Source of the DNA: Rhynchobatus australiae
Lineage: Eukaryota
DNA: 64,000 nt
NCBI GenBank assembly: GCA_034780895.1
Contig: JAUZTB010000118.1
Location: forward strand, 47,500,335 to 47,564,334
Direction of reading: 5' to 3'
The notes beneath the pieces are model-generated. The model did not search any database and was not told the origin of the DNA. It worked only from the letters and a program-made list of their open reading frames with translations. Position 1 is the first letter of the stretch. Each line of letters begins with the position of its first letter. Shown here in pieces: positions 4,746-46,264 of this stretch. The position numbers were made by a program, and so were the translations under genes.

Positions 4746-4754
4746 CTCAATCAG

Positions 4755-8247: not shown

Positions 8248-9559
8248 AGGTGCGGTCTCAATGAGAAGAGACAAGCGGGTCCAGGTCTGAGTTCTACATT
8301 GTAATCAGCGGGATATTCCTGTTCAGGGGATTTGGGTAATTCCCCATCCTGCACCCTTCTTATCATGTGGATTGTGAGAATTCGTAAACCTTCCCGTTTT
8401 AAACGACAAACCACCCTACTGACTGCTGTAAACTTGGATGATGCAGCGTGAGGAGTGTTCACTTTGCTATCAGTCGGATTGTCAATCACCCAGTGAAGCC
8501 CACTGCGTCACGTTTACTTCCAAGGAAAGAATGCGAAAATACGAAAACAATAGAACAAGTTTGTTAAAGGTTGTTGTCAGATCCGATGTCATTTATCCCT
8601 TATGATCCGTGTGTAAAACAGAAATGGTCCTTTAATAGCAATTTGATGAATAGTAAATTGCAGTAGATTTTATATGTTTATTAAGTTTATATATTTCTGA
8701 CTGCAGAGTGCCAAAAAATTGCGTTTCACCCACAGGTCAAAAGTTAACCATTGGAACTATTTGATTTAGTTTTCCAGCCAGTTGTGACATAAGCCAAATC
8801 GTGTACGGAATACGCTTCGAAGTTAACAAAATATTTTCCCCAAATCAATTCAAATCGGTTACATAATAAATATTTGTGAAATATACTTTCTGTGTTCATT
8901 GAAGCTTACAGGCTTGGGATGAAATCATAGCACACTCCACTGAAATTCCTTGGTCGGTAAGATTTCAAAATGTTTATTTATTGGTCTTTTGTAAGGGGCA
9001 GAGACACTGGTCATACAGGATGATCTTGTGCGTACATGTGCGAATATTAACGATTTTACTGCTGAACTCAAGAAAATGTTGCCTTTGTTCATTTTTCGTT
9101 ACATTTTTTATTAAGATGTTATCATATTGAAACTGAAGGCAGCATGGTGGAGTATTATTACCAATGCTATGAAGTGTTCATCTGTCATTTAGGGCACGTC
9201 ATTCCCAATGCGTTAACGCCACACAAAACAGCGAAGATCGTACGTGTCATGTGGACAACACCAAAGGAGAGAAAAATCAGAGGAAAATCAGGTTTAGGTA
9301 TCTGCCAGCAGTTGGTGCGGAATGCCCTAGAAACGAATTGCTGACCCAGTTTTTTGACCATAACTGTCAGGCTGAGTGGAAAAGGAGAGAAAATAACTGA
9401 AAAACAGAAAGCCAACGTGTCCCATCCCGACAAAGTCTTAGAGATTCTCTATGAGATTAGTGTACTAATAAATTACAATTCAGATTAGTTTAAATTGTGT
9501 CGGACAAAAACCGATTGAATTAGCATTTTGCACAACATCTTCAGGGTAGAGCATCCCTT

Positions 9560-10015
9560 TCGCCCTTTCCTTATTTAAACATCAGTTCAGCGTCTTGCAC
9601 GTTTTGCTACTGGGAGTACTTGAGCATCTAACAGGAATTGTTGGCTGGGATTTCAATACGGCACTGAGATAAAGTTGCATCGTTGGAGGTGGGTTCTCCC
9701 AGAAGAGACGGTGAACTGAGGCACCGACAGTTCTCTCGAACAGACATTAAAGATGCCATGGCACTATTTTGGAAAGATCTGGGAAGTTACCTTCGGTGTC
9801 CCGGCCAACATTTATTCCTCAACCAACATCACAACAAAGAAAAAATAATTGATCATATTGCTGTCTATTGGCGCAAGGTCTGCGTAAAATATCTGACGGA
9901 TTTCCTATACGCATTACTCGTTAAACGAACAGTTTAACTAGCTATAAGGTGTTGGGAGGGGGTGAGTGGTGAAAAGGGAGGTGAAAGGTGCTATATAAAT
10001 GTAGGTCTTTTTTCT
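9560..10015 (+). mobile_element. SacSINE1/DeuSINE-like SINE
   Basis: Deu-domain-like text CATGGCACTATTTTGGAA...CCGGCCAACATTTATTCCTCAACCAACATCAC and tail GTGAAAGGTGCTATATAAATGTAGGTCTTT. Related copies are at 55335-55795 and 59000-59400. Confidence 0.7.
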
Positions 10016-13000
10016 ATTTTTGTATTTCACATACCATCTCTTTCTGTACTGGCAAATGTTCTTGAACATCTATTAGAACATTACTTTAATGGAAAGGTGA
10101 TAATTCTATGAAAGAAAACATGAGGGATTAGCATAATGAAAGATAGTCACAGAAGAAGATTTTTTTGTAAAAAAGTTGAGTATATGGGATTATTTGATAG
10201 TTTGACGATTGCACCTAAGAATAGAACAAGAGCCCATTCTCTCACAACGACTTCGCCATACCACTGTTGGGAGATACAAAGCAGAGGTTATGTGATTCTT
10301 CATGAGGAGGAAAGAAGGGAAAGTCCACCTTGAAAAAGTTTCGGGTAGCCTCTTAACGTGCATTTACATTGTGAACGGGATTCAACTTTTCACATCTTTT
10401 CATAACTTTGGGTTGGAGAGGTTTATTTCTGAATGCAGTATGTACATTTATATCGCGCATTAATACTAATTTCCCATCATTCCATTTACAGTTTCTTTCT
10501 ATGTTTTTTTTCTAGTTCCTGGCACGATTTCTTTTGATGATTGATTGATTGATTGGCGGATCACAATTTAACCAAATGCCTTGATCTGAATGCTCGTGTG
10601 CTTATCTATCTGATATTTATTTGTTAATCTTATTATTTGCCCATGTACTTTATCCATTTGGTATTTCCTTTTAAGTTTCTGTAACATTGTTTTCTAAGAG
10701 TGAATGACATTTATCTTACATTTTCTTCGACAATTTTGTTTTTTTTTGCATAGTTCATCTGCTATCGGTTGGCTTTTTTGGACTTTGATGGACAAGGAAA
10801 ACCTTTTTTTAAGGCACATTATATTTACATCCGAATTGATAGTTTTATCAGAGACAACTTAGTTCCGTTCGTTGTCTCGCAACATTGTACAATATTTTGG
10901 AGCTATTTATGATGGACAATTCACTTTTCTATTCCGTTGCATATTATATGCAACAGATCAGTGACCAGTCGATGTGTATATGTTAATTAGTGTCATCACG
11001 GAAAGGCAACAAATTCAAACATGAACATTTGACTTGACTTCGTCATTGATTCCCACATAACGAACTCTGAGCGCTGAATGTCTCCTTGAGGCTATCTCCA
11101 GCGCTATGTCACTTGAGGCCAAGGAACAGGATGGCTAAATTGTCTGTTTCTGATATGGAGGAAAGATAACATATACACATATATCATTTAAAAAAAATAC
11201 TAGTTCACGTGTTGGGAATATATAGAATTAGGCTTCGATCTACTGCTTACAGTAGATTTTGAGATGTTCCGAGCTTTAACACAAAGACTTATCTTCCTTG
11301 AAACTCTGAGTTCTAATCTCTAATGCGCGAAATGATGACAGGTACCATATTTTAATCGTACTTTTGAGACGTACGTACAACAAAATGTGCAGGTGAAAGC
11401 CTTATGAATCAGTAGATACATCAAATACAGAAAATTCAAAGTCAGCGTCCGTCCACGTGGTATTTAAATTTTGACCAAGGTAAAAGGCTTAAGCAATGAG
11501 CTGCAAATTAATATTCGTTCTGTTTATATATTTCATTACATTAAAGGAATAAATGGTGGTTCAGACTTCCTCATATAGCTTTTCAAAAATATGCTTGCTT
11601 ATAGCTTAAACTGGAGACATTCCAGCATCTATAAATGCAGAGGGTATTCACATTAAAAACAACTTGGGCAGTATATTCCGGTTATTTTGCTTTCACGGTA
11701 CTGAAAATCATCAATTAGACTGCCATTTTCCCTGTCTGTTTATTGACTAGGTGCAAGAGGTTATTCCAGCCGTGCTCTTCAGGTGACTCGGGTTCATTGA
11801 TCTTTTTCCAGGGCGATGTAAATCTATGTATTCCACTTATAATCATCACCTCTGGTTCCGTTCATTATTCCCCCATCAGGAAAAACTCCAGTGGAAACAC
11901 TGCAGCAGATCAAAGGTCACATTAGCGCCTAAATCAGTGGATCGGTGGTAGTACTTGAAATCCTCCTCGAAGTACCGGAATGGGCTTCGATGCGATTCTG
12001 AGAAGTAGCTGAAGATTTATGTGGCAAATAGGGTTGCTGAATTGCAAGTGAAGCACAACCTTTGTCAACCTCTGAATTTAAGACTTTGCAGACTCATACA
12101 GATCGGCCACATTTTCTCTTTAATTGCTCATGCGCCATACTCTGGAATCTTAAAGCCCAGTGTAGTTTTATCAATCATCAGCACTTGGAATCAACAAAGT
12201 CAATCACATAAAAGTAACTCCTTTTAAAACTTTGTTATTTCGGTTTCTCATTTTACCAAATGGCGACACTTGCAAAATGTGAGTACACCGAGATAATCAA
12301 AAGGAATGACAGCTAAATATATTTCCATATCCTTTCAATGTTAGCTGGGGGCTTATTGAGGAATTGATAGCTAAGACCACACAACCGAAGGAAGAACCTG
12401 GACTGCCGATGAATACACACAGCTTTATCGAGCACGATAATAATATTCCTACTTGTGAACACTCACATTTAGACAATTTGGATTATTCTCACCGATATCA
12501 ATTGAAAGTTGTGAAAAGGACTTCAAGAGTATGAAAGTTGTAAACCGTAAGCTGCTGCACTGAAGAAATGTAAAAGCAGAAAAAACTGTGTATATTTAGA
12601 TAATAGAACGACTACTATGATGAATGAAACCAATACTATTGATACAACGATAAATAATGATCGCAAAGGTTAGTTCTGGGTCCTGCTTCACTCGATATAT
12701 TAATGAATAGAAAGGACCAGCGATGGCAATAGCTTCAAATAATTATTGCGCCCTGATATCAGTTAGGGCGTTAATATACACAGTACATTTTAATGCGGTG
12801 TGGGCTAATGATACACGAAGTTAATCACATTGCAGATATTTACAACGCAACATTTTGAATATTTGGCTAAAGCAGGTGATGACAATTAAAGAAGAAACAT
12901 GGCACTCACATACTGAGTGTCAAATTAAAAAATAACTGAGAATTTTGGAATTGAATAAGTTCTGATGGTAATTATATTTATACATGTATAATGTGTGTAA

Positions 13001-15289
13001 AAAGAGGCAGCCTATATGTTCACTTGATCAAATTAATTTTTGTGTTTCGTGAGCAGAACCTAAAATTTAAGAGCTGTTCAAGACCAAGATCTGATTGTAC
13101 TCCATGAAAACGTCTGACTATGGGGAAACACATGGGATTTGTTTCACACATAACGTGGCATTAGAAATGATTATTTAATTTTTATGTTCCGAGTAAGCTG
13201 CGAGGGCTCCAATATAACTTCAAGTGAACACCCCAGCCCCTCCCTTTCATTAAATTGCCTCTTAAGTGAAAACAAACTATTAGCGATCTTCAGCTATTAG
13301 GATCAGAGTTAAGGTTACACCTTTAGGAGTATTGCGATCCTAAGCCAAAGGGCATTTAAATTCTTTTAAATATTTTAGAATGAAGATTTTCAATGTTTAA
13401 CACTGTAAGTTTAGATAAAGTTTATCCGTACTTCTTATTTATCAGCATTTCCAAATTCGGATTTTATAAAACATCCAGTGATCTGAATATGTGCATTTGG
13501 TTTGATGTGTTACATCTACTTTACAGTTGATATTTAGTTGCTTCATAAAGTCGCAAACAGTTCAATTCTGTGTCAATTGTCCAATAGCTATTTTTGATTA
13601 TTTGATTATATTAATTTTCTAATAAAAGCATTTTAGGTAATCAGGATCTAAGCGGCGATCCTGTCTAAACCCACCTGTTTTAGTCTATGAATGAACAAAT
13701 GTTTAAATATACGATTAAGACCATCAACTAAAGCATTTTATCTTAGATCTTAATATATTGTTATTACATGACAAAATATTGGCGACAATATTTCTTCCCT
13801 TAGGCTAAGTTGTATCTAAGGCTATATCATATTGGGCATTTTATATTCTTTGAATTTCATCTCTGACCCGAGTGCTCTTCAGAAACTCGAAAAACAGAAC
13901 ATGTAGCCCACCGGCACATCTCTGCAGAACGGATAATTCATGTTTCCGACTGAAATCCGTTAGGGATGAGTCAAGAATTGTTTTTTTTATCATAAACACT
14001 TCCACGTGTTGTTCTGGCTCTTTCAAGAGCAAAATAAACAATATTTTTAAGTGTTAGAGTAATATGAGTCGAAAACTGATGTTAGATGTGTGCTAGAAAT
14101 CATGCTTTGAGCTTTCCCGTGAGGTTATACCCAGCTAAGGCACTTGATCTGAGTATTGCTTTTATATATAGTGAGTCTGAACGAGCGTTGTTATGGTGTT
14201 ATATATGTAAAACATACTGAAAAAAAATCAAAGTTCCAAGTGTCGTCAAAGTGACCCAGGTTTCAGTAACTCGAGGTTTTTAATGAACTCATTTGCGTTT
14301 TTGCAGGACGATGTAAGCACGCCCAAAGAAATTCGAATTTATTATATAAGAGACACTGACGGAAATGTGTAAATTCACAGACAGTTGTTGGTATTTGAAC
14401 TGCTGCGAGACTTTCCCATTGACACGAATGAATTAGTATTTAAAACTTCCTTAAAGTTGCATTGCGGTCACCGGTTAAAGGTCAAGTGCGGCAGTAACTG
14501 AACATCTGAAATGCCTGTGGAACAAGTGCAATGCTGTGCTAGCAATTGCTGCACATATTTTCTACTCCAATTTTGATACCACTTTAGCTTGTGTTGCAGA
14601 CAGAAATATGGCCGAGTGAGTCCGCTTCGCCAATTTCTAACCTTGGGTACAGTAATCAGTCAATAGTTTCTCATAAAATGTGGTAATAAGATTGTAGCAA
14701 ACATTGTAGCAACATAAAATGTAGCAAATACTATTTTATATTAGAATAATGTCAATTTTGTGTGATAGTACGAGCATGGGGGTTGGAGGATGAGCAAACG
14801 TTTGGTAATGTGCCCCCTCCCATTAAGAGTCAATTCGATACAATTTATAAACAGCGGCGCCGTATTTAAGAAGAAAACCGAAAGCTAAACAAACTCTGAA
14901 TGTACGGCGTCCCCTCTGGTTGGGGGTGGGGTGGGGGCATAAAATTCTGCCCCTGGCTGTAGATAAAACTATCTGATGTGGGTTTTTTTGTGGGTAAATT
15001 GAGGAAGGAGGGTTAGGCAGAGAGTGGAGTGGTGAGAAAAGGCTTTAATTATTCAGAATGTTAGAGTGATGCTTTGATCGGCGTGTGATGCGGTGTTTCA
15101 GAATTCCCGTCCATAGCGATCCTCTGGTGCAAGTATTTGCAAATGCCAGGCATTGTAAACAGGGTGGAATCAGGAGGCGAAAGAGCCAGCCCCAAAGTTA
15201 CCGAGTGCCATAGGTGGGAGTGATTTGTCCGGCAGATGTGAGAGTTTTACTTTCTTTTCGCTGTATCGAGGGACTTGGCGATTTTTTTA

Positions 15290-15456
15290 AGCGAACAGGA
15301 CATGATCTCACATGTAGCGAGCTCTTTTAGTTCCTTAATCATTTCACGGTTTGTTCAGAGCCTTTTCTCCACCTAAAACGTTTAGTTTCGGATCAATGGG
15401 CAGCACCAAAGACGCGACGGGGTAGCGGAAGAGTCAAATTATCCGGAGCCGACAAA

Positions 15457-15498
<42 letters not shown>

Positions 15499-15558
15499 CG
15501 AAAAGGAGAAACTTTTTTTCCAGCCTTTTCACAAAGGATTCGAAATACCACAACTAGT
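15290..15558 (+). promoter_or_regulatory. pax5: Pax5 exon 1A 5' leader / proximal promoter region
   Basis: GAACAGGACATGATCTCACATG...TTTAGTTCCTTAATCATTTCACGGT...CCACCTAAAACGTTTAGTTTC closely resembles the human PAX5 exon 1A leader as I recall it. It lies directly 5' of the 1A ATG. The TSS cannot be determined. Confidence 0.7.
15457..15497. repeat. (CA)n microsatellite in the exon 1A leader
   Basis: Direct reading of about 20 AC units with one interruption. Confidence 0.95.
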
Positions 15559-15598
15559 ATGGAAAAAAACGGCAGCGCCCTCAGGAGTATCCGATCAG
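15559..15598 (+). CDS. pax5: Pax5 alternative first coding exon 1A (MEKNGSALRSIRS + G)
   Basis: Strong Kozak AGTATGG and donor CAG|GTAGGT at 15599. The phase-1 end joins exon 2 as G+GG=Gly-HGGVNQ. It resembles human 1A MDLEKNYPTPRTSRTG. Confidence 0.85.
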
Positions 15599-18500
15599 GT
15601 AGGTTTATAAATCGTTCTGTGAAATGTACAAGTAATTCGCAAGCATGAAGTGGCTGCATTGACAACAATCGGGCGTTTATTTTGTAGAGTTGAACAGTAT
15701 TCAGTGGTTATAAAAAACTATCAAGACTTAAGACAATTTGTTTTTTTAAAGTGAAATATCTTAAATAATCAAGATAGCCTTTATGAACATTCAAGTCTTG
15801 GAAACTGTTTAAAGTAAATTTAATGCTCTATGAAAACTTAAAATGAACATTCAGCAGAAGTAAAAGGAAAGTATATCTCTGTGCATGGATAACGGCGATG
15901 GCACTGACGAAATGTACGGTTTCCAGGAGGTGTCTGGTTTACACTGGATTCAGAGTTTCTCCATCAAAAATGAGCTTTGTAACTTTTTTATTACTCTCTG
16001 TGGGCGATTCCGGGTACAGTGAAGATAGATCAGGGGTCATTTCTGAGGTCCAATCAGTTAATTATATTTTAAAGCAAAATTATTTCACATTTAATTGCTT
16101 TTTGTTGAACATTTTCAAAGTGTTGGTGTCACTGAGCAACAGAAAGCTGTAGGAATCTGGTCTGCAGCCGAAAGTGTTAGGAATAAAAAAAAAGCTGCAA
16201 TTCGCCACAAACTACTGCTTTCGTGTGCGAGGGAATGGGTCTGAGCTCTTGATTGTCTGTGTATATGATCGTGTGTACTTGTGCGCTCGTTGATTGAGGA
16301 TGTTTATCGAATTCTATTTTGTGCTGTTTCGCAACATAAAAATAGCCTAATGGCTGATTTCGGCGCCCTGTCACTGCCTTGTTTGCTTTGTGCATTCTTT
16401 TTTCAAATATGTGTACAGTTCGATTGATTCATTGCGGGTGGGGAGAAACTGGAAATTGCTCATTCTGGCTTCTCTTTGGGAGATTATTAGACAATCGCTG
16501 CGATTGACCTGTGGGTGAATATCTACCTTCCCCCATCCCAGCAACTGCGTTTAAGTTAGCACCGCCACTCTGTCTAAACAAAAACTCGAAATGTGAAATT
16601 AGGGTGTGGGGCGCGAGGCCCAAGGATTAACTGATCCCGTTCAAATTTGTAGATAAGCATAAACGTTCAAATTACAGCATCTTAAAAGGACAAAAGGCAA
16701 AAACAAAAACTAAACTGCCTTTAAAAAAACTGCTCTATCCTTTTCTCTGAAGATCTATGGGCCCGTCTGCCCCTAAAGACGTGTGATCATTCAGATGTAC
16801 GCCCTTGTTTTGTGCAGACGGGTGCCGCTATAGGAAAATGAAACTGAATTAAATTGACTTTTGGATTTTCATTTGCCCCTATTTTCTCTGATTAATATTC
16901 GTCGTTTGAATAATTCTAAACATTTTATCGGCAATTTTAAACCACACAGCTGCCACTTCGAGGTTTTTAACCGTGTGTTTTGAACAGAAGTAGATGGATT
17001 TGCCAATAACTTTCGTCATTGCACCAAGGCGTACTGAACCTTTAGGGTAAATCACGCTCCTTCACGGCCCTCGGATCAATTTGTCAACGCAACACCCAGT
17101 CCCGTTTCCTCCGATAAATCCAGTTTTTTTCGCTTGTAGATATTTCCTATTAAAATGCAATCCGAATATTGAATGGACGGGTGCCATTTTCATGGAACTG
17201 TTCGAACCCCCGTGCTCTGATATAGTCTAAAGTCTAGGAAATAGGACTGCAAGTATAATACAACTGGAAAGTTGTATTTGTGATCTGGTTCTTCTGTGCT
17301 TAGACTGTGAAATATTGTTTTATTTTCTTCGGTTTGTCATCTCACCTGTGGACGCAGCTGATTCCGTAAAACGACGTAATCTCCATTGAGTAGCGTTAAA
17401 TCGTTACCAATATCAATCGCCTCGATATACCGAGCACAAAACAAAACGGACGCTGAGATCTTATTGTTGTGAACAATGAGGAAGAAACAGCTTACATAAT
17501 TAGCGATAAAAGCAGGGGATGTATCGCTGTGTGAAACGGCATATAAGTTTCCGAGAATTTCAAGACACGTTTTTTTTACTCTAATTTAAACATAAATTCA
17601 ACAGGTTTGTTCACCATTCTATAAACCCAGACCAAAACGTCCATTACTTGACTTGTCAAGGATGAGGTCGGAGGATCTTCCCTCAACCTTTACCATTCAC
17701 TGCCTCACACACCTCCCACTGCCCTCGTCTCTTTTAAATATTTAATCCAGATAATAGACGACAGTTTATGTCGAGAGAATCGAGTAATTCAAGGAAACTC
17801 AATCACGAGTTCCAATTCTTAATGCAGGAAGTCCAATGCCGATGCAACTCGGTAACCGATGGCATTCTTAAAATCGCAGTTTGCCCATCACCCCTTCCTC
17901 TATTTAAAATAACACAAGGCCGTCAGCAGTCAGTTGATTTACGGGGCGCTCTTTTAACAGGACAGATTGCTCTTCCTTTCAATGACAATGCGTTAAAATA
18001 AAAGAAACAGAATAGACGATTCGCAGACTGGATCCAAAATGTTTCAATATAAAGGAAAACATCCCACATATTGACCTCAAGTACGCAGCGTATTAATTTG
18101 AAATCTGTCGCATAGTTCACGTGGAATCACCGAAAACAAAGAGACAGGGTGTGAGATCCTGTGCCCTTCACCCCCTGACTGACCCCTCCACCCTTCCCCA
18201 GTTCAACTTTCGAAAGGACCCTGCCCAGTTATCGATCATAAAGGGCACTGGTTGCCGTGCCTGACACAAGAATGAATTTGTGCCATTCTAGGACATTAGC
18301 TGCTTTTCCTGTCTGTGACCCGTGAAATAATCTATATCATTGTTTACTTTCAGCTTTCTGGCTGACAGATGACAGTGTCGAAAGCCTTTGTATCAGCACG
18401 TGCGAGTCACGCTTGTTCGGTGTGGTCGGGCCTGTTTTAAGGTGCTGCCTTTTAGTTAATTAGTTGCCCTTTTGATGATGAACTTTACATCATCTGCGTG

Positions 18501-21437
18501 CATAATCGCAGATTAAATAAACCCTAACTGGGTATCTGTCACGCACTATTTGTGCACATAGACAGACGTTTAAACAGTGTTAGCTTTCAGAGAAGCTGCA
18601 TTACTTGATCTATAATGATAATATTGAAAACAAAACTGGAAATAAAATTAGTAGCTAGAACGGAATAATTACGTTCCATTATGGAACTTGTTCCTTACTT
18701 AAAACAAGTCGGACATCCTTGAGAAATAATTACAAGGATTTCTAACGTGTTGGCTTCAGAACAGATGCCGAAACTGTCCAATTAACAGGGTAAATGCCCA
18801 TTGAATGAACCTAGTCTGGTTTTACAATGATGCATTTTAAAGACGTGGGACAGGTGTTACTATATGATTGAGATTCCTTCATGAAACATTGGAGATCAAT
18901 TCCTATTAGTGAGTTTGGGGCAAAAAAAACACACACCTCACATCTCTGTCAAACTAGACTCAGTGGGCCTTCGACTGCCAGATTTCCGGTCCAGGAAACC
19001 TGCAGCAGGAATGTCCCCCAGAGGATGCAAGGAGAAAAGCTATTCAGTGAAATGAAGCCCATTTAGCACACAACTATCCCCTCTCACCCATCCCTCCCCG
19101 CATCAAAAAAAACCAGAAAACGTGCCAAGGAAACGGGCAGCAGTTCCTTACAATGGAAAAGCAATAGGCTAGCCTTCGCCCCTTGAAGAGAATAGCTTCA
19201 CTTTCTGCTCCTTTACAGCCAAACCCACCAGACTAGGAGGACGTGTGAAAGAAAGAGAGAAGGACTGCAGTTTTCTCATTGCTTTTTAGCCGTTGGTAGA
19301 TTCAGATATTACAACTTGCACGGAAGCACTGTGGTTTGGAGTTTCTAGTGAGGCCCACATCTCCCTGCCTGGATAAAATCACATTTTTGGCCATCTTCAC
19401 ACTCGCAAACAATTCCTAGCTCCTTCTACAATGTCTCCCTTAAATCAATGGCCTTATATGTTTCTTGATGTAGGAAGATTAGATTTTTGAGGCGGCAAGT
19501 GTCAGTCACCTGTCAGTCTGCAAGACAACACAAGAGTTAGCTAGACCTTTCGAAGTACGCTCTATATTATACAAGAGGAATCGATAGATGTGTTATCTTC
19601 CGTCACAATTCTTTCCATAATTCATCCCCTTTACCTGTTCCACGGATCCAAATATGAAATATTGTAAATAGTGAAAAGCAGGTCAGAGATCTAACATCAG
19701 ACCTATAAAGTACACTGCCAACAAGGTTATATAAAGGTACACATTGGTGATTGATACAACTTGTACTTCGCATCGTGCACCTCGTGTAAATCTGAGTGAA
19801 TTCAGGGGCAAGTGGCACTGTCAAAGGTGAATAACCAATCATTTGCAAAAGAACTTTTGTCATTTTCACTGTTAAACTTGGAAGAATAACCGTTTAAAGA
19901 TTATTCCGTTCTTCTGCATCACTTTCAAAATTTTCGGAGATAACAAAATATGCATAAAAAATAACCAGTGAAACCAATGCGTGTGATCATTATCTAAACC
20001 TTAACTCAGCTTTGAATCTCCACCAATACCTAATAACTGGCAAAAGCTCGTTTACATCAACCTATTTACCAGCAATGTATCTTTACATACCATTCCTGAT
20101 TACTAGAGCGGGTTAATTTTGTTCTGAATGCCACAGCCTTAATCCCCGCTTTAAATCGAGGTTCTATTAGTGAAAATAAAGTATCTCAATTAATTTTACA
20201 CAAAATATTTTCGTTCAGGAGAATTTCGGGAGCAAATAACACACATTTATTTGACTGGGCCTCTCACACTGGCCTGTCGGATTCACTTTGGACCTGGGAT
20301 ATGAATTACATCATTAAACAATCTGGGATTATCATTAAATCAGAAATGATATCATGTCATTACATGTCGGGATTGTTGATGTACGAAGGCAACTTCTTAA
20401 ACCAAGGGGTTGACATTTATGGCGGTTCTATGAATAGCTGCCTAAATTTAATAGTACTACTTCCGCATGGTACTCACTTTTGATTATTGATTAGGCCCAA
20501 CGATTAGGTTCAAAAATGTTCATAATCTTAAATTATGTCAAAATTATAACGATCAAAATTATGTCGCCTTTAATTAGTTGACAATAGCAACATCCCTTTG
20601 ATCTCACTGTCATTGCCACTAATCTTCAAACCCTTAAGTGAAGGTTATCGGAGCGACTGCTTTGCTTTCCTGGAGTCCATCCCCAAATGCTAACGAATAA
20701 CGTTTCAAGGACGAATGGTTAAATGCAATTAAAACAACGATTTAGGGTGAACTGGGGAATGATGAAACTATGCAGGAATTATAGAATGGAAAAAGACAAC
20801 GAGCGAAAATTGTGCCGAAGGATAGAGAGAGATATGTCTAGGGAAACACGAGGAGGGGAAGTGGGACCGCGAAAGAGAAAGTGACAACCTGTAGTTGGTG
20901 AGTGTTGGTGCCCTCTGTCGAAGGTTCCAATGTACAGCTCTGCATAAACGCTGTATTCTTCCCATCGTTCTCACCCCACTCCCTCCCCCAGTGTGAGCGA
21001 TTACACGGGAGTTTAAAGGAAAATTCGAGAGGACTCTCTTGATCCCTGCATCTAAACTGGAAACGGAAGTGGCGCAAGAAATGTCTCCCTCGTTCTATTT
21101 TATGTTGTACGCAGGAGCTGCATCTACACCGGGGTGCGGATTAAATTGAAAAAGACCCAGTTCAGTTGAGGATGGGTGTGATGTTCCCCTACTTAGTGGA
21201 ATGCATTGGTTTAAGTTTCAAATATTCAGCGCACAGAAGTTCCTAGGTTATCTGCGGTTGAAGTTACACTAGAAACATGCTCTTAGACCAGTTTGCTCGC
21301 TGCATTATCTTTCAGAGCCCTGTCGCCAATTGCAATGCGTGCTACTCCTAATGACGAATTTAACAAAAGGCCTCTGTGCCTAGGAGTTTGGATACATATG
21401 TGGGTGATTGTTCCCCAGGAAGTTAATCTTAATGTTG

Positions 21438-21443
<6 letters not shown>

Positions 21444-21472
<29 letters not shown>
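21444..21472. repeat. (GA)n microsatellite
   Basis: Direct reading. Confidence 0.95.
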
Positions 21473-21475
<3 letters not shown>

Positions 21476-22124
21476 TTAGAATGTCAGCATTAAAATCCAA
21501 TGAAAAGTTTCTGAAGTCGGAATGACCCCAAATGAATCGCAAGCACTTCTGAAAATTGCTCGGCGGTAGAGTTATACTTCCTCTGTGCTTAATCTGTCTC
21601 AGACGGTCGCTCAGTTCTTNNNNNNNNNNNNNNNNNNNNNNNNNNNNNNNNNNNNNNNNNNNNNNNNNNNNNNNNNNNNNNNNNNNNNNNNNNNNNNNNN
21701 NNNNNNNNNNNNNNNNNNNGTACTAACAGTCTACCATATAGTTATGGACCCAGATCCTTCCGATTTCACCTTTAACCCGGCAACGTACGCGCACGGTTGC
21801 CATTAAAACAGAATGAAGATGCAAGTTGATTGGGTTTGCTCCATCCATTACGCAAACCAAGAGAATTAATAGTATTGAGTAAAATATCTCTTGGGTGGAC
21901 CTTTGGGAAGGGAGACCGACCTCCTGACAGCCCCTCATTGAGCTGGAGCTCTGAGCCACATAGCCGCTTTTCCGGGCTACAACCACAAACCATGTCCCCT
22001 CCCACGCGAAGACGCAAAAGAAATTCTGCGTTTGGCGCTGGATGTTAGGAATTGTCGGGGGGTTATAAAAACAGAACTGTTAAAAGGAGTCGGGGTACGC
22101 AGTATCTGTGGTGAAAGATGCAAT

Positions 22125-22425
22125 TAACGTTTCAGGTCAACGACCTGCAAGCCGTCATGCTGACAATGTTAACCCTGTTTCTTTCTCCACAGATGCTACC
22201 TGGTCCGCTGTGGATTTTCAGCATCTGTAGTTCTTTGCTTTTCCATTGCCGTGGGTTTGTGGGGAGGTAGGGCAGTAGTCGGACACAAAGGGTATCAAGG
22301 GGTATGGAAGAGGGCGGGAATATGACATGGCATTGAGACAGATGAACAGTTATGTTTGTATTGAATGGCGGAGTAGACTCCAATAACCCAATGACTTACT
22401 CCTGCTCTATTTTATAACTTCATAA
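22125..22425 (+). mobile_element. Penelope-type terminal repeat remnant followed by a CR1 3' UTR remnant
   Basis: TCTCCACAGATGCTACCTG...TTTTCAGCATCTGTAG matches the repeat at 38770 and 52741. It is followed by CR1-like GGTATCAAGGGGTATGG...TTGAATGGCGGAGTAGACTC...TACTCCTGCTCTATT. Confidence 0.6.
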
Positions 22426-25400
22426 TTCAGTGGCCAGGACTCATGTTACTGCAACCAGGGCAGGAGAAAGTTTACACTCGGTTTTAAAAATAGAATTTTT
22501 ATTTCTCAAAAATTAAAAAAAAATCAGAAGTCTTCAAGAACAGTTCATGTTATAATTTACAATTGCTTCATTATTGTCTTTTGAAGGATGGAAACAAGTC
22601 CCCTTTCCCGTACGACCTATATACGACCCCCGAACTATTCCAACAAAGGGGGGGGGGGTTAGTTCTCAAATGCTCCCCAGAATTGCCTAGAAACCCAGAC
22701 TGTTACTCTGCCCGAGAAATAATTTCAGTGTTGCCAACAACTCCCTTAAATAAAAACTCAACTCCTCCAAAGCATGGGGTATCTATACATACGCTCATGC
22801 TCTGATCTTTGACAATCAGAGCTAATCGTAAACTCCAAGCACATTTATATACAGGCCGTAATATTTCCTCATTGGTCGCATTGGCTGTGTTTTGTGATCT
22901 GTCTGTCCTCCGTGGTGAATATTCCGTGCATATATGGGGGCACACAAAATCCGCCGCAAACCAGCATCGCAATGCGGGTTAATTGGCCTCTCGCAGTACA
23001 AAGGGGTTGTCCCAACCTCTCCCTTTTTGCCGTCGCTGCTTGTGCGTCCCCAATAAAAAAAACATTCTAGACAGATACACTTGTTAGCTGTTGCTTCGAT
23101 GACACTTAGAATTAAATATTCTTCGATCAATTCAATTTTGTGTAAGGTATTTGGGATTTTAAATTCGTGATCTGGAATGAGTCAGGTATTCTCTTATCAT
23201 GAAATCACGCAAAGAGTTTCCCAACATACTTTCGATATGAACAGGAACAGAAGGGATGGATTTGAACCCGTAAAATGAAGGATGGTCTATTGCTCTTTGA
23301 GGTTTATGCCACCAAATATCCAACACGCGTAGTTTATTACTCAAGAGGTTTTTATGTCAGAAGTTATAAGTTTGAATCACTAATTAGGAAAGGCTTCTAG
23401 TTAACGATTATTGTGCAGTTTAGATAGCTCAGGCGATTGGCTTAAACACAATGGAGGTTAGGTTGACGATTTAAATCGACAATTTTGTGTATTTCTAAAC
23501 TTTAAAATCTTTTTTAACACATGAAAACGTCAAAAGTATTGGGAAAAAGTTTGACTTTTGTCTTCTATCAAGGAGAATTCTATTAGAAATAATTCGAGAA
23601 GCATAACAATTTTCAGAGCCATACAAGCGGCTGGTATTCACTGCCACTGAAGTCGGGAGGAGATTAGAACAATACAACACATTCACATTGTCTATTCCAA
23701 GTGAGTGGTACTAATGGCAAATAAAACTAAATCATAATTTAGTTTGTCCTACTAATTATATAATTTCGCCCCGCGATACCGGCAGACGGATTGTGACCGC
23801 GCAGCCCCTTTCCCGAGCCGTCACAGGATCCTAAAGGGATATGAGCAGTCAGAGCAATCCTCCCATTGAATTTCTGGACTTATGGATGGAGCCTTTGGGC
23901 AGACCCAAAGGCATTCAAGCGAGCAAGTTCCTCATCCTGCCGCCTATTCTCTCTGCACCTGTTGGCCAAAGTGTTTGAGCGTTGGGCTAAAACTTGGTCA
24001 GAAATTGAGCCTCTGTTTATTTGTAGCTGCAGCAAGACTAACAGTCAATGAAATTGGAATAGATAAAACTAATCTCTACTTGTTTGCTTTTGATAGCACG
24101 CAGAATTTTATGAAGGGCATTAACTGCTTTACTTGGATCGTGGTACCACTCCTTGGCTTGTAACACGAAGGCATTTCAAAATTACAGAGATGAATGGGTG
24201 CTTTCTTCAATTCCTTGCAAGAAGAACTAGCGACATAATAGCAACACCTCTGGGTGTCAATGTCAGAGAAAAAAAGGCCAAATTGCCCTTTAATAGTCCC
24301 ATTTGGACCCATTTGAAAACTAGCCTGGTGGACAAGGCCTCGGTTGAAGCCTCATTCACATTTAGAAATAACGTAACTATTTGTATCCATAGCACAGAAG
24401 TCCTTCGAAAAATGTAACTTCAGAGAAGTTCACACTGAGTCTCTGCTATCCAAATATTTACTGTGTTTACTAACACATTACGTCTGGCGTCAGATAGCTG
24501 TTGGAGAGGAAACTGCGAGCTTGCTGATGTGAAAACAAAGTGAGATCTTGAAAATCATTTATGCACAGCCGCAGGTGATAACTGAACACACGGCTTCAGC
24601 GAAAGCACTAAAATGGGGGAAGGGCGGCACCAGAATATTGAAATTATTAAAGACTTGGCTCAGGAACGCTGAATTAGATTAAGGAAAATACATTGAACCC
24701 CACAAAGGGGTTGCAATATCTCACCAAAGGCATTTTATTTATATTTGAAGGGTACGTCCAGTTATCACGCCCTCATTTCAGCAACACCCAGCGTCGAAAA
24801 TTTACCATATTCCTATGGTTCGATTGGAAGTTTCCATAACCCCATGAAATTCAGCCTGCTAGCTATCTCTCTATTTCTTTTATGCTCCGTCGTAACTCGA
24901 GCGTTCCATTAAAACAAAATACGGAATAACATTTTCGTTTATGATTACCCAGGTGTCTTAGAATTGTGGAAATGTTAGAAAGAAAAAAATAAGTTATCCA
25001 GCAGGTCGCGGTTAGTAACGGTGACATTTTATGTCTCTTACGTTAATATTTTACCGTATTTATAAAATGTAAAGAATTGCTGATAAACTATTAACTTATA
25101 NNNNNNNNNNNNNNNNNNNNNNNNNNNNNNNNNNNNNNNNNNNNNNNNNNNNNNNNNNNNNNNNNNNNNNNNNNNNNNNNNNNNNNNNNNNNNNNNNNNN
25201 GCTGATAAACTATTAACTTATATTTGTAGACATTCTTATGTCGATATTAAAGCAGTTGTCTGCTGAGGGGCCGAAGTTATAGTAGTGGTTAATACACAAT
25301 ACGCCATACACAAATTAACTTTTGACTTGAAATATCAAATGCGTTTTAAACATGTTTTTATTTGCTGAGTTTTACAATGAAACCTTTGAAAATTATTTGT

Positions 25401-26589
25401 TGATTTTCAGACTAAAACAACAAAGCGATTTGTTTCTATACTTTTGGCTGGCGGATACATAAGTAGTATGCATCCCACATTGATGAGCTGCTGCTGTTGT
25501 CTATTTGAAATGTCGAATCAACAAATGCAATAATTTATGAAATAGTACTGGAATTGTACGGTTATTGATTAAGAGAAGATTATCCAAAATTATCTAGTAG
25601 CTTCAATACAGACAGAGCTTATGATCCACAAATAAAAAGTACACTGTGCAAATAAGAGCAAATGTATGTGTAAATACAACTCGTACATATATTCCTGTGT
25701 GTGTAAGTACAGATGTACATCTGTGCACGTGCACGTACAGAAAAAAAATCAGCTCCCATGTGGTCTCCAGCTGCAGGTGGAAATTCAACAATAAAAGTGC
25801 CCCTCAGAGCAGGGCTAACCGCGATTACAATTAAGTCTGTGTGAGTGACCATTAAGATATTTTAAATAATGAAAATGGAGCTACGTTGGTTTAGAAGATT
25901 AACTCGTCCTGGGGTGACTTTTTTTCATAAATTCCCGGATTTCGGAGTTGACGATTCCCTAAGTGCCTGTAGTAGAACAAATATTTTATACTCAATTAAT
26001 GTTACATACTTACTAAATGATTAATGCATTTTCACTGCATTCAGCCTAAATAATAACAAAGTATCATTGGATGTGAGGCACGTTGTAAATACATGACACC
26101 TGTTAACTGTCTATAAAAGTGATTCTCTGGCTAAAGTTTTACAAAATGTTTATTAAAAGCGGCGAGTGTTTAAAACAAAATACTCAAGATCTTATATCTA
26201 TATTATAATTCGATATACAGATCGACACTTTACTATTAACAGCATTGCATTCAGTCTTTTCTTAGAATAATTTTGTAAATACATTTTGCAACAATGCCTT
26301 AATTTTGTTGTGACGCAATTGTTTCCTAGCTAATATCGCTCAGCCGTAAGTGTCAACTTTTACATTGCTTTCTTAACTGGTATTACTACTAAAGTCAGGC
26401 ACTAGAATTTTACAGACTCCTTAACTTAGAATAGAAATGAATGACTTATTTATATAAACAAAAAGAAGCAAAAAGGATTTGCTTTGGAATATAATTGTCT
26501 AAAATTATTCAAATGAAAAATTAGATTCCGTTTTGGACATTTGAATGAATTCCCTTTAATAGAGAGACGCTCCTCCAGGGTTTAACAGA

Positions 26590-26930
26590 ATGGACCAATC
26601 AGAATACAACATGAGATAACCAGTTATCAAAACGACCGCCTCGTGTAATCGCTACGACTTGCAGATAATTGGTGAACGTTAAAAAGCAGGTCCGTACGAT
26701 TGGCCAACTTTCGCAGATGAGGATGAGGGTCATTGGTGAATGAATCAGCAGCTCACACGGTGATTGGCCAAGACCTTGAGTTGGTTGGTGCTATTGGTCA
26801 ATGGGAACGGCAAAGATTGCTTGACTGGCTGGTGATGATGTGATTGACAGTAGCCGGGGCCGTGCGTCGTCCCCGCAGGGCTGAGCCTCGGGCGAATCAG
26901 CGCCGAATCACTGTGGGCTCAGCCACATTT
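26590..26930 (+). promoter_or_regulatory. pax5: Pax5 exon 1B promoter: CCAAT-box array, TGATTGACAG decamer, GC-rich segment
   Basis: CCAAT at 26595; ATTGG at 26668, 26699, 26732, 26763 and 26793; TGATTGACAG at 26841-26850; CpG-rich 26850-27000. No ATG occurs from 26941 to the 1B start at 27390. Confidence 0.75.
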
Positions 26931-27389
26931 AAACACTATGGAGGAGACTGAGCGCGACTGAATACAGAGCAGGGGGCCAGCGCACTCCGGGGAAACAGGA
27001 ACCCGCCTTTGCACACACAGCGGACAAATTGCACAGGAAAACGCCAAAAAAAAAGAAGCTGGAATTCTTAAAAGGATTTTTTTCCGGGTGTGAACGATTT
27101 CGAAGTTAAAATTCACTGCTGTCACTGAGTAGCAATTGGATTCATTTTTTGGGGGCATTGCATTGCATCTGACAAACTTAACTTTCACGTTTCTTGCACA
27201 ATCCGCCTGAAACCTTGAGGATCACAAAGCTGTAGAACCTACAATTAGTGGCTGGGATCGAGATCTTCTTCTGGGTTTGCGTGGGGCGCTGCTCACCCTC
27301 TTTTGTTTTTTGGGAGTATAGGTGAAGGGGTTAAATCCAGACCAGAAAATCGAGGTTTTCTCCGAGTTGAAGACCGGCTGCGCCTTTTC

Positions 27390-27432
27390 ATGGAAATCCA
27401 CTGTAAGCACGACCCGTTTGCAGCAATGCATA
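27390..27432 (+). CDS. pax5: Pax5 alternative first coding exon 1B (MEIHCKHDPFAAMH + A)
   Basis: Nearly identical to mammalian PAX5 1B MEIHCKHDPFASMH. Donor GTAAGT at 27433; A+GG=Arg continues into HGGVNQLGG. Confidence 0.95.
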
Positions 27433-29880
27433 GTAAGTAGGCAGCTCCTTCCCTGGCTCGTCTGGCGGTTCCTAGTGAGTGAGAGTGTGTAAGGAGTGCT
27501 GGAGTACCCGGTTTCACAAACCGATGTTCAGATGTCCCTGGACCCGGAGCAACGCGAAGTACTGGAAAGGGAACGTGTTTTGCTGAAAATCACAACCGAG
27601 TCACACGTGCACGGCTAATTTTACTACCATCCCCAATGTTCCTGAATTAAAAGCGAGTTAATTAATCGATTTCTTAATTCTCATAATTAAATATAAAACA
27701 GCAACATTCGAGGACACAGTTACAATATTATTTTAATTGCATATACTTTTACTCAGAAATAAGATATGGTATTGTTGCTTTCTGTGACGAACACGGTTTG
27801 TAGTGAACGTCAGTGTCTTTAGTAGAAGATCATTAACATTCCTGAACCAAAAAAATGATTTAGTTGCCAGTAAGTTGCAAAGGAGTATTAACCAGGGCAA
27901 TAAATAAGGTCGACGCCTAACTGTTTCGTTTCGCATTATCCAAATTGCTTTTACTGTTGTGAATACAATGGCGAGTAATAAGCCGAGGTAAAACAGTGAA
28001 AGTCTTCACTGATGGAGTTGGACCACGCAGAAATCTCCAGCACGTTTGTTTTGGTTGACAGAGTTGGCTGGGACTTGTCCATTTGGTCGATGTTATATGA
28101 AATGACACATCCTATCACGGTGTGTTAAGTGTTATTATACCTACAGCTTGTAAACAGATGCTTTATCAACTCGAACTAATCATATTGTAGAAGGGTCTAG
28201 ACACACTTTAGGAATGGCACCTCGTTGGCCAGGTTTACTGTGTGTAAAACAGGTTTAAGTTTATCCCTCCAACTCAAAACAAAATGTATCGATTTAAAAT
28301 TGTTACAGCACAGTGATGTGAAGCAACTGCGCAGACACTAACTTTAAGATCGAAACAAATATTATTGATTTTATAAAGAGATATTGCTATAAGAGTAATG
28401 TATTTTTAGAATCCTATCCGGTATTAATCTATTTCAAGACTGAATTATATATTTAATCATCCTGGTCCGTTTGCAATAGGAAATAGCCGCAGTTTCATTT
28501 TGAACTTTTTAAAAAAATGGTTAAAATCTCAGAAAAAACTGGGCAATGAAAAGGAATTTATTCTGATCTGGCGTGAAATCGGATGATTTTCTTTTGAAAA
28601 AAAACACTTGCAAATTTTCTAGTTCGCAATTTTCAGCTCCAGAGACTGAAATGAGGTACCATTTCACTGACAACGAAACGGAAGTAATACATATTTTTGC
28701 CTCATTAGTAAGGCGTTAATTTCACTTAGTGCTAAATCCGGTAAAAGTAGCAACGAAAGAGACTAAGTACCTCCCGGCGCAGATTACCCCTCTGCTGCAG
28801 GTATCAATCCATTCTCGTTATAACTTTCCTTCCCTCCGGCTGTGACACAGACTAATAAAAAAAAACCCTGGAGATTTATATGGGACGATTTATGTCAAAC
28901 ACTCCAAGTTTTGCATAAAACAATTTTGTTGCCGATTTTCATTTATTAACACTTAGGGACGTATTTTAATTCCGAATGTAGATCCCCTGAATCCAAATTG
29001 GAATGCTGTTTTTTTTGGAAATCATTATCATCCCGAATTAGGATTTATTATTTCCTTTCCCATTCTCGAAAGCCATCGAAATTTACTATCCCCTTAGGAT
29101 AAAAATATACTGTTTTCTTTTGCAAGATAACGTGCGAGCTACCACTAACTGTGTGGTAAATATCCAAACATTCTGTTACATTCGCTGCGAGAATCCAACC
29201 GTTCGCAATTCTGCAGCCGATTACTCAAAAGAAACATGTCTTGCTCCCAGAAGACTGAACGGGACTAATATCTGTCCACAAATCTCCGAGCGACAGGAAG
29301 CTGAAGTTTCATCGAAAGGGGCGCTTTTTCTGTTCCGAATTCAGTGGGTCACTTTCACTTTCAGTGAACATCTCGCGTGCCTCAGCCTCACAGCAACGAT
29401 CTTTACTGTACATTTTTAAAGCTGCTAACTGTAACTGAAGGGACTGTTGGCGTATATTGCGTTAATTTTATAATCCACTAGAGTGTTTAGCTGCCCCTTT
29501 CCTGAGGGCAGTTGTTGGCTGAGAGCGTGTGGACGTGATGTGAGGGGTGTTCCAGAAAGCCACTTTGTCCTTGCCTCCTTGGAAGTGTTCCCCTCTAACC
29601 AAATGCGGCGGGTTGCTCACCCCATTGCTCTTCTCCTAACTTCTCCAGCCCGTGTATTACTCCAAAACCACTGTGCCCCCTACCCCGTCCCCACGCCATC
29701 CCAATCCTACCCTTCCATAACTGTGTAGAGGAAAGGGTTCTGAACTCCTCACCCCCCTATATTTTTTTTTGCTGGCCCGTGCATTGCCGATAATTCTACG
29801 TGGGAGACACGGACTAAGTGCTTACTGTATAGCTGCAGTGTTTCTTTTCTTTCTCTCTCTGTTTTATGTATTGTATACAG

Positions 29881-30046
29881 GGCATGGCGGGGTGAATCAG
29901 CTCGGAGGAGTCTTTGTGAATGGCCGCCCTCTCCCCGATGTTGTCCGGCAGCGAATCGTGGAACTGGCCCACCAAGGAGTGAGACCCTGCGACATCTCCA
30001 GACAGCTCAGAGTGAGCCACGGCTGCGTTAGCAAGATTCTGGGCAG
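29881..30046 (+). CDS. pax5: Pax5 exon 2, paired domain N-terminal part ([55 protein letters not shown])
   Basis: Polypyrimidine tract with TACAG acceptor, donor GTAAGA at 30047, 166 nt. Confidence 0.98.
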
Positions 30047-33000
30047 GTAAGAGGCAAGAGGAAAGAGAAATGTCAAACATGGTATCTGCCTGAAACCAAA
30101 TGGGGCCCAAACTGATAATTACAGTTCAGCAACAATAACATCTTAGAGGAAATTCAACCCTGAATGGAGCATGAATTTGAAAATTCCTAGAAATTATACA
30201 CAAGGCCGAATTCCGAGGGGGAAGCGAAAAGCCTAAATAAATCAGAAATTATAGTGCAAACAGGAAACGTTCATCATCGGGCAGTGTGTTCAGTGGAATA
30301 GTAATAATGGAAACAATCTTACAGGCAAGAAAGTAATAATGAGAAATAGTGTTAGAGGCAAGAGAATCAGAAGTAATTCAAACCTAACATTACAGATATG
30401 AGGAGAAGAAATAATCCAGGAGCGACATATCCCAGACAAAGCCTTTCCTGCAGGTAATCCATCAGAAAGGATATAACAACAAGGTAATCCTTAAATTAAG
30501 AGAATCAGATATCGGAGAATAGCAGAAAACGATTCGCCAAAACCCCAGCAAGTAAAAGCCATGCATAATACAGAAGAAATCCCTAGGTTATAAGAAAGCA
30601 AAATAATCCTTTAATATATGTCAGCCCTTCCAAACAGACAGTAAATAGCTGGTAGGTACAAAGATAAATATTAGAAATGCCTAGGAAACGCATAGACACA
30701 GTTAACACATATTAATGTGCAGGGCAATGATTATAGACACCGCTGCTGCTGTTTCAGTGTCAGTCTCTGCAGTCACTTTTTTTTTAGCAGAGACTAGAGT
30801 GACAGCGAGAGCACATTCTACCCCCACATTCTGCTCCCTCACTTTACACGGCAGCCCTGACCCCTGGCAGCCTTTAGAAGGACTTACATTCACGCTGCCT
30901 GGTACAAAAGATGAGGGCGTCGAATCCAGGTGCAGAGGGTACATAAACATGTAATATCATACCTATACACAGAGGCGAACATTTCGAACAAGGCTCTTTG
31001 CCTCGAAATTAAATTATGCCAAGTGGTATGTGCACCCAGAAAAATGTGTATTTGCACATATCGGCACCAGAACACGCGGCACTCACCCCTACATGAAACC
31101 AACAAGCTGAACACTACTTATTTAAACAGACGAAAAACAAACCGGCATACAAATTCACAGCTAAAAAGTGAAACCTAAACATAACACTTTATATTGTTCC
31201 TTCTCTTAGTCTCGGACACTCGCGTTAATTAGGTTTATTTGCGTTGATATTTCATATATTTTGATGATGTCGCGTTTTGTAGAAGAAATAGTTCAATTGC
31301 ACATTAAACTAAGAAGTTCCTTTATGAATCATTTGCTTAATTATTAATGTTAGGAAATAAAATTGATAAAGTTCCACCGTTTATACTTGTGGGATGGGAG
31401 AGGAGTAACCATTACATGCTATAGTGGAGAAATATTAATGCAGATGTTGTGTGAGACGATGGGGTTTTGGGCAGATTAAACCCTTCTATCATCTTATAAT
31501 ACCACGATTTAAAATTGCAATTACACGTGCATGAACGCTGGGCCTGGGGTACAGATGGGATGTCATTACCCAAGTCAGATCAATTTATCAAAGCACAAGC
31601 GGGAGCTGAACTTTTATTTTTATTGATGCTCTGCCAGAGTTTGGGTCAGTGATCATCGGAAACTTTTTTTTACCTTAGTAAGATAATTCTTATTTTCCTT
31701 TGCACTTGGACGAGCTCCATTGTATTTTCAAGGGATTTGAAATCACCAGGCTTCCAGTGATTTTGTTCCCCTAGGAGAAGCGTGACTGACCTATCACAGG
31801 CCCCGGTGAGACAATATTGTTTTTAAAATTAATTGACTTATTGGAAGTTCGAAAACTAGAGTTTAGGGTTAAACCGCAATTTTAAAAAATCTTAGCAAGG
31901 CCAGTAATCAGATGAATCAAACGAAATGTTAGAGAAATCTGCGCCAGTCGTTTTGGGGGTCCTTGGATCTGAAAAAAAAATTCCACTGAGATCAACTACG
32001 GTTAGAGCCAGGCCTCCTGCCATAATTGATCAAACTTGGGGAACACGACTCTTTCTCTGTGAATTAAACCCGATCACAGTTCCCATTGTACCGTGCACCC
32101 CTTTTTGCACATTTGCTTTGTTCTTGCACAATTTCTAATTCACTAATTGACGCATAGTTAAATAGCAGACAGTTCATTTGACTCTCTTACCAGGCTCGAA
32201 AGTTGGCCAAACGAATAACGAAACACTTTCTAAACAAGGTTACACACCAGGGCAGAACGTTTCTTATTTGAAAGTTATGCAATCTTGGAGAGTTAATACA
32301 GGCAGGAGCTAGAATAAATTCCAGTGACCAGATTAATAGACCACTGCAACGCTTACGTTGCTAACGGCTCGGTTTGAGTTATAAATCTCAATGAATTTGA
32401 CACGACTATAGGAAGACTGTCATTTACTAATTAATTTAACAATTAACTGAAAGTTACCGATTGTCTTCTCTGATGATGAAAATCTGACATGTTCCTAGCC
32501 AAGTTTCACGTTTCAACTACAAGGAAAAATGATTTGTTCGAGCAAAAAAAAACCTCGGAATATTCTCTAATTTCCCATTTTCTCGCCGCCACTAACTTCT
32601 CTCGGCCAGACCCTGAGTAGTAATGGAAAGCTGCTGGCTTCAGATCAGTCTCAGCAGCAACCGCACGTCCATAGAAAGAGAAATTAAATGTTCAGGAAGA
32701 AGCAAAGCGTGTGGAGGGAAGGGCGGTCGGAGCGCAGTGAAGCAGGGATTAGCATTCAGGTCCCCACTGACTAAGCTTTAAGCACAACCAGCAGTCCATC
32801 GTTGCCACCAGTCATTCTCTCCCCCTTCTCTATTACACACATTTATTCCCTGCAAGGTTTGTTAAGAGGCTCACGATGCTATTGCATTCAATTCCACTCC
32901 GCTTAAAACAGATCGGAAGATCCACTCCAATCGCATCTTGCAGGAATAGGAGCAGTTCATATGTGAGTGTCTTTGCCTCTTGATCCTGTTTAGCGAAGGT

Positions 33001-33505
33001 GCATAATTTTGAATTAAACTGTAATTGTTTTGTCAGAAATATTTGGTGATTTATTGATCTATTACCCAGTGTGAAGGGCAATGTACATAATTGCTTTAGT
33101 AAGCAAAAAATTGTCTTTTTAAGCGTTACTTTGGAAACTTCCTCTATTCTGCTTCGCTAGCAGTTTGACCGCTCGCCACATCTACTCTTAGGAGTATAGA
33201 ACGTAGCACATGGAACACAAGAACATACCTAAGATCTTCTTTTAAAATTTTCCCGAGTTTCAATGGCTTCATAAAGGCAATTTTTATTCTAATTACCCCG
33301 CTGGACAAATATGGGTCTCGAATTCAGAGATAATTTGTTTCATTTTGGGATCTATCTGCGTTGTTGTGGAGTTTCAAAGGACATCTTCCACGCCTTCTCA
33401 TTACACAACAGGGATCTCAGTTTAAGACTCTTCACTGTCGACTTAAATCAGTAATGCGGAAACCTGTCCTTGGACAGTGCTTCACGGAGAATAAGTCTGA
33501 CCTTG

Positions 33506-33508
<3 letters not shown>

Positions 33509-33536
<28 letters not shown>
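33509..33536. repeat. (GA)n microsatellite
   Basis: Direct reading. Confidence 0.95.
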
Positions 33537-37533: not shown

Positions 37534-37773
<240 letters not shown>

Positions 37774-46000: not shown

Positions 46001-46132
46001 TCCTTGAAACTCAATCCTTCTTGGAAAGCCAGCAATGACAGATCCAGATTGATTTTCCACAGGAGAATGTTTTGCATCTTGGTTTACAATGTCTCTAAAC
46101 TAACTAATCCTTGTTGTCATTGATACCCGTAG

Positions 46133-46264
46133 CACCAAGCACTGTGCCAGTGACTCCAATTCCTTCTGCTGCCACAGATTCAGCGGGATCTTCCTACTCC
46201 ATCAGTGGAATTCTGGGAATCACACCATCTAATAATGAGAATAACAAGAGAAAACGCAATGAAG
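46133..46264 (+). CDS. pax5: Pax5 exon 5 (octapeptide exon: [44 protein letters not shown])
   Basis: Branch-like CTAAC/CTAAT near 46100, acceptor CGTAG|C, donor AAG|GTAAGT at 46265. [17 protein letters not shown] and NKRKR match Pax5. Confidence 0.93.

Follow-up and report, generated by a model that had tools for sequence, protein, structure and literature searches.

A Pax5 exon 1A orthologue in the ray Rhynchobatus australiae and the age of the two-first-exon design

The Pax5 locus and its two first exons

The window, that is the whole stretch of 64,000 nt of Rhynchobatus australiae DNA that was analysed (GCA_034780895.1, JAUZTB010000118.1, 47,500,335-47,564,334; coordinates are window-relative), carries Pax5 exons 1A, 1B, 2, 3 and 5 on its plus strand. 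The coding part of exon 1A (15559..15598) is 40 nt long and consists of MEKNGSALRSIRS and the first base of a Gly codon. Its ATG at 15559 stands in the context AGT-ATG-G, position -3 being A and position +4 being G, and the 13 codons and 1 nt that end at 15598 are followed by the phase-1 splice donor GTAGGT (15599..15604). The coding part of exon 1B (27390..27432, 43 nt, donor GTAAGT) has its ATG 11,831 nt downstream of that of 1A. Exons 2 (29881..30046) and 3 (37536..37733) encode the first and second parts of the paired domain, the former being 55/55 identical in all 19 proteins compared, and exon 5 (46133..46264) covers the octapeptide region. Both 1A and 1B are in frame with exon 2, at whose acceptor (29880/29881) the split codon restores the frame from 1A into the paired domain. 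The first-pass annotation of this DNA had described a 40-nt coding exon with a strong Kozak context and a phase-1 GTAGGT donor, 11.8 kb from 1B and in frame; each of these sequence facts holds.

The host gene is Pax5 and not Pax2 or Pax8. Among the best 120 of 130 matches to exon 5, all those to named Pax proteins are Pax-5, the others being generic, hypothetical or unnamed. Identity over exon 5 reaches 39-42/43 in rays and skates, 36-38/43 in sharks, 32/43 in the chimaera and 29/43 in bichir, as expected for the gene of a ray. The exon 3 peptide is identical to PAX5 chain 1k78 at 64/66 positions and is closer to it than to PAX8 chain 2k27. Neither exon 4 nor exons 6 onward were found in the 64-kb window; since four N gaps lie within 37734-46132, exon 4 is probably located in an assembly gap.

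Both first exons, and the locus through exon 3, lie in a CpG-undepleted domain (8500..37750, no strand assigned). The CpG observed/expected ratio is 0.71-0.82 over 10001-30500 and 0.54 over 30501-40000, against 0.26 for 1-10000 and 0.17 for 40001-64000. This domain of ~29 kb has an ordinary GC content and resembles the methylation canyon of a developmental gene. Outside it, open frames at 61-585, 4839-5648 and 46853-47316 (+) were noticed, which resemble fragments of LINE reverse transcriptases. A search of Rfam over 8000-38000 returned 0 matches.

Orthology and distribution of exon 1A

All stop-free candidates running from an ATG to a phase-1 GT over 8-24 codons were collected from both strands of the window (n=866) and scored against 1A peptides from named database records, in one set of 7 mammalian and another of 22 bony-vertebrate peptides. 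The 1A candidate ranks 1/866 against the mammalian set (score 23.0; runner-up 19.1) and also 1/866 against the bony-vertebrate set, and residue shuffles reached its score in 6/5000 and 13/5000 cases, respectively. The ray peptide scores 29 against mouse 1A and -2 against 1B; with alignment scores of -5 to 6, an origin of 1A as a duplicate of 1B was ruled out. In an HMMER alignment, residue 1 of the Narcine N-terminus falls on residue 3 of PAX5 chain 1k78.

Like mammalian PAX5 exon 1A (PAX5A/BSAP, promoter P1a), the ray exon is a short coding first exon upstream of 1B, has a predicted phase-1 splice to exon 2, starts with Glu-Lys-Asn, ends with Arg-x-x-Arg-Ser/Thr-Gly and has conserved DNA at its start. 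It differs from it by its 13 codons instead of 15, by the distance to 1B (11.8 kb, against ~7 kb in mouse according to the accessible text of PMC6132355) and, in comparison with P1a, in that the scans found no canonical TATA or EBF site at ray 1A. Between the two stand intermediates that form a graded series, from chimaera MEMETHSSSYRSSRSG through bichir MDLEKSNLANRTGRSG and crucian carp MDLDQKGPSLRIGRSG to mouse MDLEKNYPTPRTIRTG. Among the matches listed, 111/234 named records containing the start of exon 2 begin with an N-terminus of the 1A type, of which 47 distinct versions occur. The filter that defines this type constrained the length, the two opening residues and the final one, and nothing else; Arg nevertheless occupies both -6 and -3 in 47/47 distinct N-termini, and both are present in ray 1A.

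N-termini were taken from the exon-5 matches (best 120 of 130, of which 16 unnamed records were dropped and 104 examined), with cluster members added. The 1A N-terminus occurs in RefSeq models of at least 13 of the 18 cartilaginous species among the matches listed, chimaera included. That of our ray is identical to Narcine XP_069782013.1 (14/14 residues) and matches Pristis XP_051875476.1 at 13/14. These two records and Callorhinchus XP_042192453.1 contain the same exon, with nothing of substance to set them apart; like all the RefSeq support for 1A they are predicted XP models, and they bear no exon 1A label. The expectation in the first-pass annotation that automated annotation could miss so small an exon is thus not borne out. 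A 1A-type N-terminus was not among the matches listed for Mobula hypostoma, Leucoraja, Carcharodon, Hemiscyllium and Heptranchias. The five-residue N-terminus that opens the Heptranchias model belongs to neither the 1A nor the 1B type; it may represent a third first exon or an artefact of the model.

The exon is also annotated in bichir, reedfish, sturgeon, paddlefish and gar, in otophysan teleosts (cyprinids, characiforms, electric eel), and in frogs, turtles, lizards, alligator and birds. To judge by the type of its accession, the crucian carp record BAG66241.1 seems to be a submitted cDNA. The models of Xenopus among the matches listed are 1B-type or other; zebrafish, Fugu and lamprey do not figure among those matches, and no 1A form was seen for them. 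1A-type N-termini are present in every jawed lineage sampled and chicken 1A is already published, so that the epithet 'mammalian-type' first given to the exon has to be dropped. Since N-termini of both the 1A and the 1B type are annotated in chimaera, sharks, rays, bichirs, sturgeon, gar and teleosts, the accompanying proposal that the two-first-exon design already existed in the jawed-vertebrate ancestor, if not before, gains support. All elasmobranch 1A models seen have an N-terminus of 14 residues, compared with 16 in chimaera and bony vertebrates, the shorter form most likely reflecting a loss of two codons in sharks and rays.

The DNA upstream of the ATG provides a second line of comparison. 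A chicken primer pair labelled TSS, ChIP (PMC4301804 Table S2) matches the window at 15292-15313 (+, 20/22) and 15366-15391 (-, 24/26), each primer once and the two facing inward, while 0/100 shuffles gave any match. Identity to chicken is ~91% over the 48 primer bases (44/48), and by these matches the 5′ part of the interval 15290-15604 is conserved non-coding DNA, with a block at 15292..15391 (+) at the exon 1A start as the putative TSS/leader region. The mouse position-0 primer (PMC6132355 supplement) gave no match at <=3 mismatches; by eye it aligns at 16/20 positions with 15338-15357, between the chicken primers. A third chicken primer of the same Table S2, which has an engineered restriction site, aligns by eye at ~20/27 positions with 15423-15449 and would extend the conserved leader.

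Within the putative leader lies a 24-codon upstream ORF (15302..15376, +), separate from the main ORF, whose ATG and TAA both fall on bases matching the two chicken primers. Further upstream ATGs are seen at 15312 and 15396. A (CA)n microsatellite (15456..15498, +), read directly from the sequence, lies in the putative 1A 5′ UTR between the conserved block and the ATG. Relative to chicken 1A (PMC4301804, PMC5737561), the TSS primer pair falls on ray 15292-15391 in the right order and orientation. The arrangement further downstream is different: going by the primer labels in the accessible text, the chicken ATG is ~1.2 kb from the TSS amplicon and both first exons are within ~2.8 kb of the TSS. 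Because the chicken 1A ATG overlaps the primer labelled +1.2 kb (PMC4301804 Table S2), the spacing between block and ATG is not conserved and the length of the leader differs.

Could the 40-nt ORF be a chance pairing of ATG and GT, or an exon that resembles tetrapod 1A by convergence without being related to it? Direct identity to mouse 1A is only 7/16 aligned positions with a two-residue gap, and the window offers 866 candidates of this kind. Against this, the candidate tops all 866, matching peptides are carried by at least 13 cartilaginous species with intermediate forms known, and independent DNA matches lie 170-270 nt upstream of the ORF. We regard this explanation as having next to no probability, since it is effectively refuted by the cartilaginous 1A models together with the chicken primer matches. 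Judged from the sequence, the 40-nt exon is a true orthologue of Pax5 exon 1A. The same identification had been made in the first-pass annotation, and it is upheld by the first rank among the candidates, the related N-termini of other species and the matching chicken TSS primers.

Splicing between the two first exons

The 1B ATG is preceded, at a distance of 68 nt, by an acceptor (27321/27322) that has a polypyrimidine tract and opens a stop-free stretch in frame with 1A; this stretch defines a candidate internal extension of exon 1B (27322..27389, +). Over 27321-27401, 26/27 residues are identical to the Scyliorhinus canicula X2 model, and the RefSeq catshark models X2, X4 and X5 splice 1A into 1B by way of this acceptor. 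Promoter A transcripts could then mostly splice to 27322, 1B being internal and the main product having a composite 1A-linker-1B N-terminus. The open frame, its near identity to catshark and its use by three models of catshark and an ab initio one of bamboo shark speak for this, as does a vole model with an equally long linker of 22 residues. The vole linker has no clear similarity, however, and the conservation seen in catshark could stem from the 1B promoter or UTR rather than from the protein. Moreover, residues ahead of the 1B start were present in only 5/277 named proteins scanned (among matches listed), and each of the 13 cartilaginous species in which 1A was seen has a model that joins it directly to exon 2. 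A search with the catshark composite N-terminus gave 3 candidates and 0 matches; it also missed the known catshark models and is therefore uninformative. We consider it improbable that the composite form is the main product, and retain direct joining of 1A to exon 2 as the probable principal splice.

Exon 1B itself possesses an alternative donor, GTAAGC at 27402/27403, giving a short 1B form with a five-residue N-terminus. This form is annotated in Mobula, Heterodontus and Scyliorhinus models.

Promoter use, origin and significance

In our preferred reading, which we hold with considerable confidence, exon 1A descends from an exon already present in the jawed vertebrates' last common ancestor. 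Transcription would start from a distal promoter near the conserved block, at ~15290. The transcript would comprise a leader of ~270 nt and 13 codons and would be spliced from 15598 to 29881, bypassing the proximal promoter and exon 1B. We infer that 1A is very likely transcribed and spliced in Rhynchobatus australiae, with indirect support from the models of at least 13 of 18 related species. The 1A protein would differ from the 1B form in its first 14 residues, with the invariant Arg-x-x-Arg just before the paired domain, and would otherwise be the same. As the difference is confined to these 14 residues, the main job of the exon is presumably regulatory: with two promoters, a single transcription factor would receive two inputs, each under its own control. 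This agrees with the accessible text of PMC6132355, where the PAX5 1A and 1B isoforms drive nearly one programme.

It is a separate matter whether promoter A provides the B-lineage input here as it does in mouse. Mouse and human use 1A and 1B as alternative first exons under two promoters, and 1A is B-lineage-restricted (PMC6132355 and PMC2504290, as far as accessible). In chicken DT40 cells 1A and 1B usage is described as comparable in the available parts of PMC4301804/PMC5737561. Promoter elements known from mammals were sought in the ray. Human promoter A is described as TATA-containing in the accessible part of PMC2504290; there is no canonical TATA in the ray after 14850, the nearest TATA[AT]A being at 14846, ~450 nt ahead of the conserved block. 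An EBF1 site ~1.1 kb upstream of the TSS is another feature of P1a. A consensus scan of 13.3-15.6 kb, insensitive at such a distance, yielded no EBF, Blimp1/IRF or octamer site, and STAT5, E-box, Ets and RUNX motifs upstream of 1A occurred about as often as chance predicts. Two primers placed at -1.2 kb in mouse, near the EBF1-bound region, gave 0/2 matches at <=3 mismatches, 20-mers being likewise insensitive at this distance.

Alternatively, the exon may be ancient while promoter A is general or neural in cartilaginous fish, the B-cell restriction having come later through the EBF1 site and the intron-5 enhancer. The missing EBF motif and -1.2 kb primer matches upstream would fit this, although consensus scans and 20-mers say little over such evolutionary distances. 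Intron-5 enhancer DNA is scarcely conserved even between mouse and chicken, according to the accessible text of PMC4301804/PMC5737561. From what is available of PMC11372145, a bamboo shark single-cell atlas, pax5 is named as a B-cell marker of bony fishes only, and not as a shark B-cell marker. On the other hand, splenic B-cell clusters of the nurse shark express Pax5 (measured as total) and plasma cells lose it (PMC10529500, accessible part), which corresponds to the mammalian timing, and the 44/48 primer bases shared with the chicken TSS block also speak against this alternative. We find a later B-cell restriction the less probable course, with some weight left to it, and lean moderately towards promoter A serving as the B-lineage input in the ray as well.

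A still earlier origin is conceivable. The end of ray 1A (15583-15598) has five consecutive residues in common with PAX8 chain 2k27, placed there too directly before the exon-2 peptide. With 9 residues ahead of exon 2, the PAX8 N-terminus is shorter and has no Arg at -6, and the likeness falls short of established homology. Scored against all 47 1A peptides, the PAX8 hexapeptide surpasses 79/79 other phase-1 exon ends in the window, and against the 38 non-elasmobranch 1A peptides 78/79, in a comparison made after the match had been noticed and with one PAX8 chain. In PAX8, a non-coding first exon precedes the coding one, which is internal. For exon 1B, a resemblance to the Pax2 first exon is reported in the accessible text of PMC6132355. 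With 1B resembling Pax2 and the 1A end resembling PAX8, both exons may date from before the genome duplications: the Pax2/5/8 ancestor would have had both, Pax2 keeping 1B, Pax8 the 1A type and Pax5 both. The PAX8 match, its score relative to the other exon ends and the published 1B-Pax2 link favour such a history. The case consists, however, of six residues from one PAX8 sequence, in which Asn stands at the invariant -6 Arg of 1A, the donor consensus accounts in part for the last two residues and the score test is post hoc. We treat this earlier origin as rather doubtful; it is compatible with inheritance of 1A from the jawed-vertebrate ancestor, our preferred explanation. A wider conjecture, just as tentative, adds to a design older than Pax5 an upstream ORF that might be conserved from rays to birds and tune Pax5 dose, and an overlooked 1A-1B splice that sharks and mammals might have in common.

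These comparisons bear on published views of the gene. In the accessible text of PMC6132355 (2018), PAX5A is said to have appeared later, with mammals, and no hits are tabulated for Xenopus, zebrafish, Fugu or lamprey. At the level of sequence annotation, a mammal-only origin is contradicted as a general claim by 1A annotated across jawed vertebrates, and chicken exon 1A had itself been published (PMC4301804, PMC5737561, accessible parts). RefSeq already has the exon for many sharks and rays, and the exon itself is thus no discovery. A fish 1A-type cDNA may moreover have been described already, in a skate (PMID 15128764) or in a trout splicing paper (PMC3932526). Among the titles and abstracts listed in the literature searches, none reports a jawed-vertebrate origin of 1A, a Pax8 link or a PAX5 upstream ORF. 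The origin of 1A in jawed vertebrates is not addressed in the accessible portions of PMC4488758, PMC9456430, PMC4034164, PMC13670022, PMC9141580 and PMC10884147. What seems not yet to have been spelt out in print is the evolutionary meaning of an orthologue known to the databases.

Since the ray has the same alternative first exon as mammals, exon 1A would be as old as jawed vertebrates, which corrects the claim of PMC6132355 that PAX5A arose with mammals. For a leukaemia gene that is dosage-sensitive, the conserved leader block would narrow down the candidate core elements to a few. With the exact junctions 15598/29881, 27432/29881 and 15598/27322, existing shark RNA-seq can be used to ask whether the B-cell promoter is as old as B cells. 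Promoter A would be placed at the node that marks the first B cells bearing immunoglobulin and, if the design predates Pax5, B cells would have co-opted an existing promoter when they arose.
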